The notes beneath the pieces were generated by a model that saw nothing but the letters and a program-made list of their open reading frames with translations, was not told the origin of the DNA and did no database searches. Of a stretch of DNA of 10,376 bases, positions 1,985 to 9,138 are shown one piece after another. Both the position numbers and the translations under genes were made by a program. Source of the stretch: a virus (Duplodnaviria > Heunggongvirae > Uroviricota > Caudoviricetes); the IMG/VR virus record IMGVR_UViG_2778261657_000004. One strand, given 5' to 3'. Position 1 is the first letter of the stretch, and the number at the start of each line of letters is the position of its first letter.

Positions 1985-2818
1985 TTATTCTTCTGGATTA
2001 TCGATTACACTGTATTCCCCGGCTATAACCGATATGTCGTCTGGATTAATTGTTTCCACCTCTTTTCCATCCATCGATACTGCACGCTGGATTTCAATAG
2101 ATACCGGCAGATACTTGAACAGTTTTCGTATCACTGTCTTTTTGGCCATGTCTTCAAAGTGTTCATCCCAGATGGACGACGCCCCTTTTGACGCTGCGTT
2201 TTTTGCCGCCTTGCTGTGTGTGTCGCGAACTTTTTCTACTTGTTTGCTGGTCATGACTTCAAACTGCACTCCTCCGTCTTTCAGTTTTGCAACAGCATAG
2301 ACATGGGTTATAGGGGCATCTTCGTTTTCACCGGGACGATGAACCAGTTTTTCATCAAGGCCAAGTTCATAGCTGAATTCATCACATTCACGGACAACAC
2401 GAGCTGACAGACTGATGATTTGACCTGATCGACGGGCAAGGTCGATCATGCCGCGATAACCGATGATCAGCTGTACGTTCTTCTTACCGTTTTTTGCTTT
2501 TCCGTTGCCGAACGGTAGCAGATATGCATGACCGAGGGCGCTACCTGGCTCAAGTCCGAGCTGTGAACACTGTACGATGGCACCGATAAAACTCGTCGAG
2601 TCACAGTTTCTTAGTTCCGGTACTTTACGGATTTCTGTTGTAGCAATGCGGATCATGCGTTCCGCTGTCATGTGACGTGGCAGAGCTGCTGCCAGTTGCG
2701 CTTTCATTGCCGGGCTGTTAATCACGCACAGCACATCCTTATCGTTAACTGCTGCTGGTGCACGGTTTCCCTGAGTTTTTTGCAGATCGGCTTTTGCGAT
2801 AGGTGGTTGCTTAGTCAT
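1985..2818 (-). CDS. recT: RecT single-strand annealing recombinase
   Basis: Translation from ATG at 2816-2818 ([24 protein letters not shown]...) matches RecT along its length, including ...[24 protein letters not shown]... and ...[17 protein letters not shown].... AGGAG lies 7 nt upstream, and the ATG is embedded in the last recE codons (AATGACTAA overlap). The ORF-track start at 2875 is rejected. Confidence 0.92.
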
Positions 2819-4040
2819 TTGCATACTCCTTAGCCCAGCGGGGCAGTGATAACGTCTTAATAGCTGGCCATTCATCGGTATTTAGGCAGTCAGCCAGGGT
2901 CCGCAGATTGCGGTGATATTCCTGCTGGCCTGCCAGTTTTGCTTCTTCGCCCATCATGAAAATCTCAACCGGATAACGTCCGCATTCAACAGTTGTGCTG
3001 GCAACCAGAAAAACGAAAGTTGGCTGCACACCAAACTGTGCTTCATAACCGTCACTGTAGAATGCATCCTGAACGTGATAGCGGTAGTCGTAATAAGCCA
3101 TTTTGAATCGTTGAATATCCGCTGTGGTTTTCACGTCCATGATCCAGTGAAATTCAGGAATAATTTTGTCCGGACGGCACCGACACAAAATTCCTGTTTC
3201 CGGATCTTCCCAGTAAATTGATGATTCAGCGTGTCCGGCGCTTTCAACAAGCCATTGCCCCAGCGGCAAAGCCATAACGCTTTGATACATGAGTTCAATT
3301 TTCCGGCCTTCTTCCGCAGTGATAACCGTTTTTCCTGTGCTTGCGCATTCCATCAGAAACGCTTTCTCTTCTTCTTTTCCGGCGTTTGTACGGCGGTTAA
3401 ATTCAGGTGCTACGATAAAGCGGTTACTGAATTCTTCCGGTTCAAGTACCCGGCAGTGGAAAGCGGTTCCTAAATCGAGCGTTTTTGTCTTTGTAGTGTC
3501 CACGGGGGCATTTTTACGCCACAAATACAGTGCCGGAGTATCAGCAATGTCATCGAGCTGAGACTTACTGACACCGGGACCCGCGTGGTAATTCTCATTC
3601 GAAATTCCGTAATAAATACCTGGCTCTATGTCTTCTACGATTACGGGATCTGCGACTTCGCCAGTTTCATCACTGCAATCGCGATGCGGATCGCTGCCAG
3701 CATTCTCATTGTGCGGATGTTCAGCGCCTTCCATTTCCTCCGGATCTTTTTCCTTAGCTTCAACCTGATTCTCTTCACCGAATGTTTCCTGGTATGTTGC
3801 GTCGCCCATCACCGCACCACAGTCAGGGCAGTTATCCCCGCCAGTCTGACCGCAGGCATTGCAGACTATTTCCGGTTCCTGTTGCACTACTGGCTCAGGT
3901 TGTTTCGCATCCGGGCTGATTTTTTCCGTTTCTGGCTGGTTCTGGTACACAGAATCGCGAGTCTGGAGCCCCTTAACCCATTTCGGATCGTTCGGGTCGC
4001 TAATTCCGTCAACAAATTCACCACGTGATGCAGCAAGCAA
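2811..4040 (-). CDS. recE: Exodeoxyribonuclease VIII RecE, C-terminal portion only (5'-truncated; possible pseudogene). The frame stays open upstream to 4190 without a convincing start.
   Basis: The 409-aa ORF (TTG at 4038-4040) reads ...[30 protein letters not shown]... through to ...[13 protein letters not shown], which is the C-terminal half of RecE including the nuclease domain. The same frame continues upstream as ...[47 protein letters not shown] until a stop at 4191-4193, with no ATG and no Shine-Dalgarno. K-12 RecE is 866 aa, so roughly the first 400 codons are missing. Confidence 0.85.
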
Positions 4041-4169
4041 TTTATCGGCATCGACAGGATTTTTTGATGGAATGTTTTTCCGGGCTTCATGGAGTTCTGC
4101 CCGCAGTTCCTGATATTTCGCATCAACAGAATTTACCTGTGACTGAGCATCCAGCGGCTGCGTGTTCTG

Positions 4170-4298
4170 ATGATGTTCAGTTGGCCTAAATCACTTTCTG
4201 TTGCCATTGGTGGTGGGGTGGGGCTGATTGGTGTTGATGCTATTCGTGGTGCGGCAATGAGGGTCATCGGTAACAAGTTCGGTGCCCATAAGGAGTAA
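4170..4298 (+). pseudogene. Possible 3' remnant of a holin (S-like) gene abutting the endolysin
   Basis: Short frame [42 protein letters not shown] ending at TAA 4296-4298, 3 nt before the endolysin ATG, in the position a holin normally occupies. It has one hydrophobic stretch followed by a charged tail. Its 5' part overlaps the recE frame, so it cannot be complete. Identity as a holin is not verified. Confidence 0.25.
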
Positions 4299-4301
4299 TT
4301 A

Positions 4302-4778
4302 ATGCAGACACTTAATTCCCAGCGTAAAGCTTTCCTTGATATGGTGGCATGGTCAGAAGGAACAGATAACGGACGGCAGAAAACCAGAAATCACGGTTAT
4401 GATGTTATTGTCGGTGGCGAACTGTTCACTGATTACTCCGATCACCCCCGCAAACTTGTCACGCTAAATCCGAAACTCAAATCAACAGCCGCTGGACGTT
4501 ACCAGCTTCTTTCACGCTGGTGGGATGCCTACCGCAAGCAACTTGGCCTGAAAGATTTTTCTCCAGAAAGTCAGGATGCTGTAGCGCTGCAGCAGATTAA
4601 AGAGCGTGGCGCTTTGCCGATGATTGATCGCGGTGATATCCGTCAGGCTATCGACCGTTGCAGCAATATATGGGCTTCACTGCCGGGCGCTGGTTATGGT
4701 CAGTTCGAGCATAAGGCTGACAGTCTGATTGCAAAATTCAAAGAAGCTGGCGGAACGGTCAGAGAGATTGAGGTATGA
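4302..4778 (+). CDS. R: Phage endolysin, lambda R-type lytic transglycosylase
   Basis: 158-aa translation [53 protein letters not shown]... is near-identical to lambda R as I recall it, including the catalytic Glu in AWSEGTD. AGGAG at 4291-4295 sits 6 nt upstream of the ATG. The TGA stop overlaps the Rz ATG (ATGA). Confidence 0.95.
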
Positions 4779-5239
4779 GCAGAGTAACCGCGATTATCTC
4801 CGCTCTGGTTATCTGCATCGTCGTCTGCCTGTCATGGGGTGTTAATCATTACCGTGATAACGCCATCGCCTACAAAGAACAGCGCGACAAAAATGCCAGA
4901 GAACTGAAGCTGGCGAACGCGGCAATTACTGACATGCAGATGCGTCAGCGTGATGTTGCTGCGCTCGATGCAAAATACACGAAGGAGTTAGCTGATGCGA
5001 AAGCTGAAAATGATGCTCTGCGTGATGATGTTGCCGCTGGTCGTCGTCGGTTGCACATCAAAGCAGTCTGTCAGTCAGTGCGTGAAGCCACCACCGCCTC
5101 CGGCGTGGATAATGCAGCCTCCCCCCGACTGGCAGACACCGCTGAACGGGATTATTTCACCCTCCGGGAACGACTGGTAATGATGCAGGCCCAACTTGAA
5201 GGTGCTCAGCAATACATAACCGAGCAGTGTTTAAAGTAA
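4775..5239 (+). CDS. rzpR: Spanin inner-membrane subunit Rz (i-spanin)
   Basis: 154-aa translation [21 protein letters not shown]... has an N-terminal transmembrane helix followed by a charged coiled-coil-like region, as in lambda Rz. Its start overlaps the R stop. Confidence 0.9.
4995..5180 (+). CDS. rzoR: Spanin outer-membrane lipoprotein subunit Rz1 (o-spanin), embedded in the +1 frame of Rz
   Basis: 61-aa translation [24 protein letters not shown]...[15 protein letters not shown] has a lipoprotein signal peptide with lipobox LVVVGC and a Pro-rich mature part. GAAGGAG sits 7 nt upstream of the ATG. It lies wholly inside Rz, as lambda Rz1 does. Confidence 0.87.
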
Positions 5240-5289
5240 AATCTTAACTACAATATGATTCATTTTGATGATTGTTTCATAAGGAACAG

Positions 5290-5376
5290 TGAAGTAAGAT
5301 CTAAGAGGAGTTAAATTTTATACAGTATAATCATAATATTGCAGCAAGGTGGTTATAATTGAAAGAATATTTAGAT
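5290..5376 (+). promoter_or_regulatory. AT-rich trkG upstream region with several -10-like hexamers and an SD (promoter not resolved)
   Basis: TATAAT at 5326-5331 and 5354-5359, CATAAT at 5332-5337, and AAGGTGG at 5346-5352. No convincing -35 at 17-bp spacing was found by eye, so the exact promoter is unassigned. Confidence 0.25.
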
Positions 5377-6834
5377 ATGAATACATCTCATGTAAGAGTT
5401 GTTACTCATATGTGTGGGTTCCTGGTTTGGCTCTATAGTCTTTCAATGTTGCCACCAATGGTTGTAGCATTGTTTTATAAAGAAAAAAGCCTGTTCGTTT
5501 TCTTAATAACTTTCGTTATATTTTTTTGCATTGGTGGCGGAGCGTGGTATACAACTAAGAAATCTGGCATTCAATTACGTACCCGTGATGGGTTTATTAT
5601 AATTGTAATGTTTTGGATTTTGTTTTCTGTTATTAGTGCATTCCCTTTATGGATTGACTCAGAACTTAATTTAACGTTCATTGATGCTCTGTTTGAAGGG
5701 GTTTCTGGAATAACAACAACAGGAGCAACTGTAATTGATGATGTTAGTTCATTACCTCGGGCATATTTGTACTATCGGTCACAGTTAAATTTTATAGGTG
5801 GTTTAGGAGTTATTGTTCTGGCGGTTGCTGTATTGCCATTATTGGGTATTGGTGGTGCAAAGCTTTATCAGTCAGAAATGCCGGGGCCATTTAAGGATGA
5901 CAAACTCACTCCCCGCCTGGCCGATACGTCACGGACACTGTGGATAACTTATTCTTTATTAGGTATTGCTTGTATTGTCTGTTATAGACTTGCAGGAATG
6001 CCTTTGTTTGATGCTATTTGTCACGGGATTTCCACAGTTTCGCTTGGTGGTTTCTCAACTCATAGCGAGAGTATCGGATATTTTAATAACTATTTGGTTG
6101 AGCTGGTGGCTGGTTCTTTTTCCCTGCTATCGGCTTTCAACTTCACTCTTTGGTATATTGTTATTAGCAGGAAAACGATAAAACCTTTAATCAGAGATAT
6201 TGAACTTCGTTTCTTTCTGTTAATAGCCTTAGGGGTGATCATTGTTACCTCTTTCCAGGTCTGGCATATAGGTATGTATGACTTGCATGGAAGTTTTATT
6301 CATTCGTTTTTTCTTGCCAGCTCCATGCTCACTGATAATGGTTTAGCTACGCAGGATTATGCAAGTTGGCCCACGCACACGATAGTGTTTTTGCTGTTGT
6401 CAAGTTTCTTTGGGGGATGTATAGGTTCAACTTGTGGTGGAATTAAGTCACTTCGATTTCTTATACTTTTCAAACAAAGCAAACACGAGATAAATCAGCT
6501 TTCTCATCCCAGAGCGTTGTTGAGTGTAAATGTAGGAGGGAAGATAGTTACAGATCGTGTAATGAGGTCTGTATGGAGTTTCTTTTTTCTTTATACTCTC
6601 TTCACGGTGTTTTTTATACTGGTGTTAAATGGTATGGGATATGATTTTCTTACATCATTTGCAACAGTGGCTGCATGTATTAATAATATGGGATTAGGTT
6701 TTGGGGCTACTGCATCGTCATTCGGAGTGCTTAATGACATTGCAAAATGTTTAATGTGCATAGCTATGATTCTTGGTCGCCTTGAAATTTATCCTGTTAT
6801 TATATTGTTTTCAGGTTTTTTTTGGCGCTCCTAA
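5377..6834 (+). CDS. trkG: Potassium uptake protein TrkG (Trk-system membrane subunit)
   Basis: 485-aa translation from ATG 5377 (MNTSHVRVVTHMCGFLVWLYSLSMLPP...) is a polytopic membrane protein matching TrkG as I recall it. The coding sequence is visibly AT-rich relative to its neighbours. An alternative TTG start at 5359 has the AAGGTGG SD 6 nt upstream. Confidence 0.94.
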   Translation: MNTSHVRVVTHMCGFLVWLYSLSMLPPMVVALFYKEKSLFVFLITFVIFFCIGGGAWYTTKKSGIQLRTRDGFIIIVMFWILFSVISAFPLWIDSELNLTFIDALFEGVSGITTTGATVIDDVSSLPRAYLYYRSQLNFIGGLGVIVLAVAVLPLLGIGGAKLYQSEMPGPFKDDKLTPRLADTSRTLWITYSLLGIACIVCYRLAGMPLFDAICHGISTVSLGGFSTHSESIGYFNNYLVELVAGSFSLLSAFNFTLWYIVISRKTIKPLIRDIELRFFLLIALGVIIVTSFQVWHIGMYDLHGSFIHSFFLASSMLTDNGLATQDYASWPTHTIVFLLLSSFFGGCIGSTCGGIKSLRFLILFKQSKHEINQLSHPRALLSVNVGGKIVTDRVMRSVWSFFFLYTLFTVFFILVLNGMGYDFLTSFATVAACINNMGLGFGATASSFGVLNDIAKCLMCIAMILGRLEIYPVIILFSGFFWRS

Positions 6835-6971: not shown

Positions 6972-7763
6972 ATGAGCGAGAAATTAAAGATAGTCTATCG
7001 CCCATTACAAGAATTGTCACCGTATGCGCACAACGCCAGGACGCACAGTACTGAGCAGGTGGCACAACTGGAAGAAAGTATTAAGCAATTCGGCTGGACT
7101 AATCCGGTGCTGATTGACGAAAAGGGCGAAATTATTGCGGGTCACGGTCGTGTTATGGCGGCTGAAATGCTCAAAATGGATTCTGTTCCGGTCATTGTTC
7201 TGTCTGGCCTGACGGATGAGCAGAAAAAGGCGTACCGCCTGGCAGATAATCGCCTGCCGATGAATGCTGGCTGGGGTGAAGATCTGTTGCGGATGGAGCT
7301 GTCGGACCTAATCAATGCTGATTTTGATGTCTCCCTGACAGGCTTCATCCCGACAGAAATTGATGAACTGTTGACGGATGTTTTGCCCGGTACAGGAAAT
7401 GAGGAGGAGCCGTATACGACGAAAATTGATACGCCTGTTTATGAGCCGTCGGGCGGTAAACCGGATATCAGTGAACTGTACGACGATACGAAAACTCAGG
7501 AGCTGATCAGCCGGATACGTTCGGCGTCCCTTGAGCCTGATATTGAGAAATTCCTCCTGTGTGCGGCAGAACGTCACACGGTGTTTAATTTCAGCAGAAT
7601 TGCGGACTATTACGCTCACGCCCCCGCTGAAATTCAGTGTTTTTTCGAGGAGTCGGCGCTGGTGATCATTGATTATCAGCAGGCTATTGAAAATGGATTT
7701 GTCCGGATGACGCAGCGCATGGTGGAGATCATGCATGGTGGTGAGGAGGAGGAATATGCGTGA
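6972..7763 (+). CDS. ynaK: ParB-like nuclease-domain (ParB/Sulfiredoxin superfamily) protein, 263 aa; full-length relative of short Rac YnaK
   Basis: N-terminal region KIVYRPLQELSPYAHNARTHSTEQVAQLEESIKQFGWTNPVLIDEKGEIIAGHGRVMAA has the ParB N-terminal domain pattern (GxGR variant of the GERR box). The C-terminal ~150 aa are acidic with no domain I can assign, ending ...HGGEEEEYA. K-12 YnaK is, as I recall, only ~87 aa. Confidence 0.82.
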   Translation: MSEKLKIVYRPLQELSPYAHNARTHSTEQVAQLEESIKQFGWTNPVLIDEKGEIIAGHGRVMAAEMLKMDSVPVIVLSGLTDEQKKAYRLADNRLPMNAGWGEDLLRMELSDLINADFDVSLTGFIPTEIDELLTDVLPGTGNEEEPYTTKIDTPVYEPSGGKPDISELYDDTKTQELISRIRSASLEPDIEKFLLCAAERHTVFNFSRIADYYAHAPAEIQCFFEESALVIIDYQQAIENGFVRMTQRMVEIMHGGEEEEYA

Positions 7764-8688
7764 TGATTTTTGCGCCTTTATTCTGACTCACGGGCGACCG
7801 GACAAAGTTCTGACTTACCGGACGTTGCGTCGTGCTGGCTATACCGGGAAAATTTTTATCGTTGTTGATGATGAAGATAAGACACGGCATCAGTACATGG
7901 CTGAATTTGGTGAACAGGTGCTGGTGTTTTCCAAAGCCGATATCGCCAGTCGTTTTGACGAAGCCGATAATTTCTGTGACCGCCGCTCAATTTTTTACGC
8001 CCGTAATGCCTGTTTCGACCAGGCAAAACTGGTCGGGTGTAAATACTTCATTCAGCTCGATGATGATTATCACGAGTTCCAGTTTCGGGTGGATCGCAAC
8101 TATGACCAGGCCTATTTTCCGATAAGGAAACTGGATGCGATCCTTTCTGAAATGCTGGCGTACTACGAATCAATACCTGCTCTTTCCATCGCTATGTCGC
8201 AGGGAGGGGATTTTCTTGGTGACAATGGCGGCCATGCTTCGTGGGTGAAACGCAAGGCAATGAACAGCTTTATCTGTTCGGTTGATCGACCGTTCTCATT
8301 CATGGGGCGCATTAACGAGGATGTGAATACGTACACGAATCTCGGTCGCTGTGGTGAATTGTTTATGACGATCGGTGCTGTCCAGTTAGGGCAGAAACAG
8401 ACGCAGAAAAACAGCGGCGGAATGACCGAGCTGTATCTGGATTCCGGAACCTACGTTAAAAGTTTTTACTCCGTCATGTATGCGCCGTCGTGCGTAAAAA
8501 TCTCACTGATGGGTGCCAGCCATAAACGCATTCACCATCAGGTCACCTGGAACAACGCTGCAGTAAAAATCCTTCACGAAAAATACAGGAAGAAGACACC
8601 CTGCATATCAATGGGGGTGACAAATGATTCCGTATTCGAAAGTCGAGTCTCTGGCAGCGTGCCGGATGACTGCACAACAAATCGCTGA
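7756..8688 (+). CDS. Hypothetical prophage protein (~310 aa) with GT-A-like motif pattern (possible nucleotide-sugar transferase fold); function unknown
   Basis: ATG at 7756 is preceded by the GAGGAGGAGG purine run and overlaps the upstream stop (ATGCGTGA). The N-terminus has a beta-alpha-beta pattern AFILTHGRPDK...GKIFIVVDDEDK, with a DxD-like YFIQLDDDY about 60 residues later, spacing typical of GT-A glycosyltransferases. There is no Walker A motif. This is inference from motifs only. Confidence 0.6.
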   Translation: MRDDFCAFILTHGRPDKVLTYRTLRRAGYTGKIFIVVDDEDKTRHQYMAEFGEQVLVFSKADIASRFDEADNFCDRRSIFYARNACFDQAKLVGCKYFIQLDDDYHEFQFRVDRNYDQAYFPIRKLDAILSEMLAYYESIPALSIAMSQGGDFLGDNGGHASWVKRKAMNSFICSVDRPFSFMGRINEDVNTYTNLGRCGELFMTIGAVQLGQKQTQKNSGGMTELYLDSGTYVKSFYSVMYAPSCVKISLMGASHKRIHHQVTWNNAAVKILHEKYRKKTPCISMGVTNDSVFESRVSGSVPDDCTTNR

Positions 8689-8908
8689 CGTTCTGGATGT
8701 TGATCTGAACCGACTGAAAGAAAATCGGGAAGCCGCGTGGGAAATCTGGAGTAAAACACTGACTGGAGAAACAGTTCCGTTCAGCTTCACGCTTTCGAAT
8801 GGAGAGGGGGCATACACTTTCAGTTTCCCGAAGGTTCAGGTGTCAGGTGAATGGCCTGATGGGGGTAATAGCGACATTATCAGAAGTGGAACGGCACAGC
8901 CTGGGTGA
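8624..8908 (+). CDS. Hypothetical 94-aa protein or remnant of an unidentified phage gene
   Basis: ORF with SD GGGGGTG 5 nt upstream of ATG 8624. It overlaps the 3' end of the preceding gene by 65 nt in another frame. The N-terminus has a helix-turn-helix-like stretch ([20 protein letters not shown]). Its TGA stop overlaps the GTG that opens the tfa fragment. No family assigned. Confidence 0.3.
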
Positions 8909-9138
8909 AGGATACGGAAGCAGAAAAACTGTTCCGGATCCGGGAGGCGGAAGAAACAAAAAAAAGCCTGATGCAGGTAGCCAGTGAGCATATTGCGCCG
9001 CTTCAGGATGCTGCAGATCTGGAAATTGCAACGGAGGAAGAAATCTCGTTGCTGGAAGCATGGAAAAAGTATCGGGTATTGCTGAACCGTGTTGATACGT
9101 CAACTGCACAGGATATTGAATGGCCAGCACTGCCGTAG
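8881..9138 (+). pseudogene. tfaR: Tail fibre assembly protein (TfaR-like), 3' fragment only
   Basis: Frame reads [86 protein letters not shown], the conserved C-terminus of lambdoid Tfa proteins. The frame is closed by TAG at 8869-8871 immediately upstream, so the N-terminal ~100 codons and the whole stf gene are absent. Confidence 0.75.

Follow-up and report, generated by a model that had tools for sequence, protein, structure and literature searches.

Lysis genes R, Rz and Rz1 in a Rac-type prophage probably left without holin or late control by a recent deletion

In lambda-type lysis the endolysin R, a soluble transglycosylase of the cytoplasm, gains access to the murein only through lesions made by the holin, and the spanins Rz and Rz1 reach the membranes unaided and are inert until peptidoglycan has been degraded. 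In lambda itself the lysis cassette has the order S-R-Rz/Rz1 (NC_001416, 45186–46427), with Rz1 embedded in the +1 frame of Rz and R overlapping Rz. The defective prophage DLP12 of Escherichia coli K-12 retains a complete lambdoid cassette (essD-rrrD/ybcS-rzpD/rzoD), including the holin and a characterised regulatory region; transcription of this S-R-Rz/Rz1 operon and a modulating effect on OMV production have been reported, with phenotypes that depend on the holin (PMC7918800). The Rac prophage of the same strain carries an orphaned lysis remnant, the pseudogene rzpR and rzoR, upstream of trkG; S, R and the first ~20 nt of Rz have been lost there. According to a published survey, incomplete prophages preferentially lose lysis and lysin genes (PMC7744054). 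Our search for literature treating the Rac prophage trkG, holin and endolysin together returned only off-topic reviews.

The genes described here occupy positions 4170–5239 of a 10,376-nt stretch of DNA, hereafter the window, which is, judged by its gene content and colinearity, a heavily deleted Rac-type cryptic lambdoid prophage of E. coli. The Rac gene set in the window comprises intR, xisR, rcbA, ralR/RalA, recT, recE, trkG, ynaK, tfaR and pinR (Table 1), and all features by which we recognised Rac are present: intR/xisR and ttcA-adjacent integration, recET, the trkG moron and pinR at the right end. The assignment is based on colinearity with E. coli AR_0061, whose annotation gives the same layout with ttcA flanking, and with K-12 Rac, whose map served as the reference for gene order, together with Pfam matches for the individual genes and the RalA sRNA. 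Shared with K-12 are the element and its ttcA-adjacent insertion site, the left arm intR-xisR-rcbA-ralR-recT-recE, the right arm trkG-ynaK and tfaR-pinR, and the orphaned state of the lysis genes. In contrast to the window, K-12 Rac keeps a full recE, the immunity region and ydaS-W, and its lysis genes were lost through a different deletion that fused ydaW at window position ~4795; the window keeps R and a full Rz, and lost instead the stretch from the 5' part of recE through the 5' part of S.

Table 1. Features of the window, and cassette SNPs seen in other contigs of its deletion lineage, with coordinates on the 10,376-nt stretch
Feature	Position	Strand	Remarks
intR	1–1236	minus
xisR	1238–1477	minus
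RalA antitoxin sRNA	1557–1735	plus	Rfam 218 bits, above gathering score; antisense to rcbA/ralR
rcbA/DUF1187, then ralR		minus
recT	1985–2875	minus
recE' remnant	2811–4181	minus	3' ~457 codons of exonuclease VIII (PD-(D/E)XK / DUF3799 domain); Pfam DUF3799 E 2.5e-28
Holin stub ORF, 42 codons	4170–4298	plus	Holin-derived part 4182–4298 only (38 codons and stop; last TMD and C-terminal tail)
Deletion junction	4182–4183		2-bp TG microhomology; blastn of the window against L002 and base-by-base comparison
R, lambda-type soluble endolysin (lytic transglycosylase)	4302–4778	plus	Intact, 158 aa; AAGGAG RBS
SNP G>T	4523		R W74C
Rz, i-spanin	4775–5239	plus	Intact, 154 aa; Pfam Phage_lysis E 5.6e-53; ATGA overlap with R
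SNP G>A	4856		Rz D28N
SNP G>A	4877		Rz E35K
Rz1, o-spanin lipoprotein	4995–5180	plus	Intact, 61 aa; +1 frame inside Rz; Pfam Rz1 E 2e-19; AAGGAG RBS
SNP C>T	5016		Rz A81V = Rz1 L8F
Sigma-70-like site	5230–5259	plus	Sole plus-strand site within 3000–5500 (consensus scan); 3' of Rz, in AT-rich spacer before trkG
trkG, potassium transporter	5359–6834	plus	Pfam TrkH E 1e-144; adjoins the cassette on the right, conserved in Rac
ynaK, ParB-like	6972–7763	plus	Full length
TAGT-family glycosyltransferase	7735–8688	plus
Tail-fibre-assembly fragment (tfaR 3' fragment)		plus	3' of glycosyltransferase
IS009 RNA	8906–9104	plus	Rfam 219 bits, above gathering score; overlaps tfaR 3' fragment
pinR, then end of ydfK/ynaE		minus	Right end of window

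Three of the four genes of a lambda-type lysis cassette are present in the window, arranged as in lambda, and the remnant is, as far as its sequence tells, a partial cassette of this type that has lost its regulation and sits within a member of the Rac family. The first-pass annotation had described R, Rz and Rz1 as intact, with good ribosome-binding sites and canonical overlaps, and our alignments bear this out: AAGGAG lies at the usual distance before both R and Rz1, R and Rz overlap at an ATGA, and none of the window copies carries an inactivating change. R is full length; it shares 95% identity with lambda R, is the same protein as the copy in a holin-intact Rac, and has E19, which we take to be the catalytic residue, together with all other invariant positions. 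It matched the lambda lysozyme structure 1AM7 (E 5.6e-102) among PDB sequences and the PHROG category "endolysin" (3e-64); it had no match in the Pfam scan, which we read as a gap in that scan and not as divergence. A SAR or signal-bearing endolysin that could act without a holin was ruled out, given the 95% identity to lambda R and an N-terminus that reads without a hydrophobic segment. Rz, an i-spanin with an N-terminal TMD, is 93% identical to its lambda homolog and retains C99 and C152; Rz1 shares 93% identity with lambda Rz1, has exactly the sequence of K-12 RzoR, and retains the lipobox C20 and C29; these four cysteines are presumably the key residues of the spanins. The window differs from lambda in that its source holin is another lambda-family member of 113 aa with 24% identity to S, of which the last 38 codons are left, in that Q, any region able to hold a pR'-like late promoter and the orf-64 region are missing, and in that trkG lies 3' of Rz where lambda has bor. 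As a separate observation, many Rac and other lambdoid prophages among our hits (H34–H39 and H58–H65) carry the same Rz/Rz1 behind another endolysin, of the rrrD or rrrQ type, and their matches begin exactly at the start of Rz (window 4775/4776), a pattern suggestive of modules being exchanged where R meets Rz.

We mapped the loss of the upstream genes against the near-complete Rac prophage of strain FDAARGOS_497 (L002), which has the full 113-aa holin, a Q-like gene and replication, head and tail genes. The window is colinear with recE of L002 up to 4183 and with the 3' end of the holin gene from 4182 onwards, so that the 3' part of recE is joined head-to-head to the last 38 codons of the holin; base-by-base comparison with L002 revealed no IS end or repeat at the junction. 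Missing between these points are ~13,147 bp (about 13.1 kb; L002 2856–16000) that hold the 5' half of recE, racC, ydaE, kilR, sieB, racR, ydaS-V, DUF1627, nin-like genes, the Q-like antiterminator, two small ORFs and holin codons 1–75, and with them the immunity and replication regions. The recE' remnant lacks its 5' half and upstream promoter region and reads away from the junction; no ATG lies near the junction, the first start is a TTG at 4040, and the AR_0061 copy is a PGAP pseudogene. Because recE' and the lysis genes read off the junction in opposite directions, each is left without its upstream region, and the loss of Q and of the region upstream of the cassette is, on this mapping, the work of a single illegitimate-recombination event. 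The left arm from int to recE is only ~93% identical between L002 (1483–4083) and the window (2241–4183), and the lysis-trkG arm is 99–100% identical, so Rac prophages are mosaic and the element as a whole does not descend directly from L002.

Over window 4182–5504, that is, 1,323 bp that cover the holin stub, R, Rz, Rz1 and the 5' end of trkG, there is not one difference between the window and holin-intact L002, and the R proteins share an accession. At least 29 complete genomes among the matches listed are likewise 100% identical over 4182–5400 and have an annotated full-length holin, and the stub-R-Rz-trkG stretch as a whole occurs in 262 of 5,426 complete genomes (window 4182–5700, coverage of at least 80%). 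Given the zero differences from a holin-intact Rac, the deletion would be recent, and the simplest reading is that it is too young for decay by point mutation. It also follows from this identity that the intactness of the cassette is uninformative with regard to selection. The structural description in the first-pass annotation (a stub of the holin, loss of Q, recE abutting the cassette, intact genes) is upheld, whereas the choice that it offered between very slow drift and retention for some other role falls away, neither being needed when 1,323 bp of identity can be read as a recent deletion. A more general caution is that intact ORFs and good ribosome-binding sites in a prophage remnant do not amount to selective retention when they are identical to the copies in intact relatives.

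We therefore favor, with a probability of roughly 85%, the reading that R-Rz-Rz1 are a silent, disarmed hitch-hiker left by a recent illegitimate-recombination deletion in Rac and not a domesticated module. One deletion, from the middle of recE to holin codon 75, would have taken the holin, Q, kilR and ydaS/T and so disarmed Rac, and would have left R-Rz-Rz1 without a holin and, by sequence, without a promoter, between recET and the host-useful trkG. Since R would be confined without a holin and the spanins would be inert on intact peptidoglycan, the remnant should be harmless and selectively invisible; extrapolating from lambda lysis biology, it would be non-lethal even if expressed. The cassette would look intact for lack of time only, and drift would remove it through nested deletions and unconstrained substitutions. 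What we describe is ordinary early-stage prophage decay of an already known kind, and its importance is limited to that of a cleanly resolved snapshot of a stepwise process.

A variant account, that positive selection favored the deletion itself because it disarmed Rac in one step (loss of kilR, ydaS/ydaT and the holin), with R-Rz-Rz1 lying outside the selected interval, is compatible with the hitch-hiker reading as far as the cassette is concerned and differs only in why the deletion spread. The deleted interval does span kilR, racR, ydaS/ydaT and the 5' part of the holin gene, and members of the lineage occur in no fewer than 30 assemblies of differing origin. However, the junction is rare: it occurs in one of the 5,426 complete genomes (AR_0061) and in about 30 draft or SRA contigs, and exact 40-nt scans gave no match in metagenome contigs and none in GTDB species representatives. 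Clonal expansion by hitch-hiking would moreover give the same picture, and we regard positive selection of the deletion as unlikely.

Silence of the cassette is suggested by the state of its control region. No ORF anywhere in the window matched a Q-type antiterminator in the profile searches, and the Q-like gene of L002 (14095–14637; PHROG 753, E 6e-79) falls inside the deleted interval together with everything else 5' of the holin. The absence of Q and of the late-promoter region noted in the first-pass annotation is in this way accounted for, with the loss of the late promoter meaning that the whole region upstream of the holin is gone and not that a promoter was pinpointed in L002. Consensus scanning found no sigma-70-like site on the plus strand at 3000–4302, and a relaxed scan requiring 8 of 12 matches returned zero plus-strand sites at 3600–4310, where shuffled sequences give about 2.2; the suggestion that the cassette is served by a promoter inside or antisense to the recE remnant finds no support in these scans. 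One weak extended -10-like string is present at 3790, and the nearest plus-strand gene upstream of the cassette is RalA, ~2.5 kb away. The single site downstream of Rz (Table 1) is probably trkG's own promoter and not that of the cassette. R-Rz-Rz1 are thus apparently promoterless on consensus scans, which are blind to weak, non-sigma-70 or activator-dependent promoters and to read-through.

The fate of the genes after the deletion can be followed in other assemblies, in which the 409-aa recE' product is indexed in 37 blocks (draft genomes and SRA/ENA assemblies); 24 contigs were read. Contigs L006–L013 remain colinear with the window through the junction and differ from it by 0–3 SNPs, and L007 (GCA_002543575.1) is identical to it over 7,040 bp. 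In L005 (GCA_002513555.1), and likewise in a similar contig, the sequence runs through the junction to 4188 and then resumes at 4810; with this nested deletion of 621 bp (4189–4809), at a 2-bp microhomology as read by eye, what was left of the stub has gone, as have the whole of R and 35 nt at the start of Rz. In L014–L018, a type of eight contigs with a 332-aa recE' product, 3842–4793 are missing and 3841 is joined to 4794 at a 9-of-10-nt microhomology (TTATC[C/T]CCGC), so that the junction is lost along with the stub, R and the beginning of Rz. The left arm of these contigs is 99.95% identical to the window, compared with only 93% for the recE arm of L002, and 5016T, common to most junction-bearing members, is found in L014–L016 where the contig reaches that far. 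The L014 type is thereby probably a nested derivative of a window-type ancestor; as its deletion erases the diagnostic junction, this descent is likely and not proven.

R is intact in about 22 of the ~32 contigs of the lineage, a proportion that fits a young event and is also compatible with weak retention. The distinct SNPs of the cassette (Table 1) comprise four nonsynonymous and no synonymous changes, a tiny sample in which two of the four come from members whose Rz was already truncated at the 5' end. Between lambda and the window omega is ~0.07 for R and ~0.21 for Rz, and four nonsynonymous changes out of four have a probability of ~0.004 at an omega of 0.1 and 0.35 under neutrality. Elsewhere in the remnant seven nonsynonymous and six synonymous changes were counted, and the contrast with the cassette is not significant (~0.14, one-sided hypergeometric). 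These counts exclude an apparent SNP at 3837 in L014–L018, which was dropped as an artefact of the junction microhomology; the uncorrected 7:7 counts give 0.12 (two-sided). 5016T may have arisen after the deletion. In H32, a holin-intact copy with 99.9% identity, Rz is of the window allele (its protein has the same accession as that of L002, which matches the window), so that the polarity of 5016T is an inference. Evidence of purifying selection after the prophage became defective is not found in these contigs, in which R has been lost from L005 and L014–L018 and the SNPs of the small sample stand at 4:0; loss of R by nested deletions and solely nonsynonymous cassette SNPs argue against retention. 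Elsewhere the same cassette has been disrupted independently, by the ydaW-'rzpR deletion in K-12 and by an IS3 inside Rz/Rz1 in strain A23, and in another strain the match begins only at window ~5111.

These data bear on a rival reading in which the genes are a domesticated module, expressed at a low level through read-through or a cryptic promoter and acting through the holin of a co-resident lambdoid prophage or in peptidoglycan turnover and vesiculation as proposed for DLP12. It draws some plausibility from the reported transcription of the DLP12 operon and its effect on OMV production (PMC7918800), from the several related lambdoid regions that most E. coli genomes carry (a median of three matching places per genome) and from the integrity of every ORF and ribosome-binding site in the window cassette. 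DLP12, however, resembles the present remnant only in that a defective prophage has kept lambdoid lysis genes: its operon is complete, regulatory region included, and the phenotypes are holin-dependent, whereas the window has lost both holin and regulatory region to the deletion, and the consensus scans gave no promoter-like site 5' of R. Members of the lineage have also lost R by nested deletion or carry the W74C change in it, and identity to holin-intact copies accounts for the intactness of the genes without selection. We consider domestication improbable. A looser version, in which read-through or a promoter missed by the scans gives low-level transcription, and the products are used in trans by the host or a co-resident prophage, for instance to strengthen lysis once another holin acts, or have a holin-independent role in the envelope, such as in peptidoglycan turnover or vesiculation, seems to us very improbable.

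The gene upstream of R had been described at first pass as at most a 42-codon fragment, and a search of the 4170–4298 peptide against holin families agrees with this, as only the C-terminal third of the holin profiles was matched: positions 65–99 of 99 in Pfam PF05106 (E 1.1e-6) and 70–109 of 114 in PHROG 126 (E 3.4e-11). The stub aligns to residues 76–113 of the 113-aa holin of intact Rac, and the N-terminal 75 residues of a complete class I holin (about 105–113 aa with three TMDs) are missing. Its first four codons, MMFS from the ATG at 4170, are antisense recE sequence, and no Shine-Dalgarno sequence precedes this ATG. AR_0061 annotates the stub as "phage holin family protein, missing N-terminus", a PGAP pseudogene, and no entry in the assembly collection matched the 42-aa product exactly; the product is evidently not called by gene callers. 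That the ORF is a functional minimal holin or pinholin, and the cassette still a working lysis system, has in its favor an open frame with an ATG and one hydrophobic segment matching holin profiles, but we reject this as almost certainly wrong given that the chimeric 5' codons are a fortuitous product of a random 2-bp microhomology event, that only the last third of the profile is present, and that the stub has been deleted in L005 and in the L014 type.

The right endpoints of three apparently independent deletions fall within about 16 bp of one another, at window 4794–4811 in the region coding for the N-terminal TMD of Rz: the K-12 ydaW/'rzpR fusion at ~4795, the L014 type at 4794–4803 and L005 at 4810. 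They lie at a TATCT motif that occurs twice there (TTATCTCCGCTCTGGTTATCTGC), and the cluster could reflect a microhomology hot spot or selection that removes the start of Rz but keeps rzoR and the region upstream of trkG.

To the left of the cassette, the recE remnant retains the C-terminal PD-(D/E)XK nuclease domain beside a recT that is intact in the window; in AR_0061 recT is additionally split by IS3. C-terminal fragments of RecE are recombination-proficient together with RecT, and the recE remnant and recT could be activated by promoter fusion.

Two further junctions lie to the right of trkG. At 8730–8733, with a 4-bp overlap, the window lacks ~9.6 kb that in L002 hold the genes from terminase to tail tube, and at 8878–8881 it lacks ~1.2 kb of AR_0061, ydaY included. 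The ynaK gene encodes 263 aa with a ParB_N domain in the window; the K-12 gene is shorter and the gene is annotated as partial in other strains. The glycosyltransferase gene that follows and overlaps ynaK encodes a 317-aa, TET-associated protein (Pfam TAGT, 1.4e-34) that matches the PHROG category "beta-glucosyl-HMC-alpha-glucosyltransferase" (6e-104), and the two genes 3' of trkG may form a phage DNA-modification pair.
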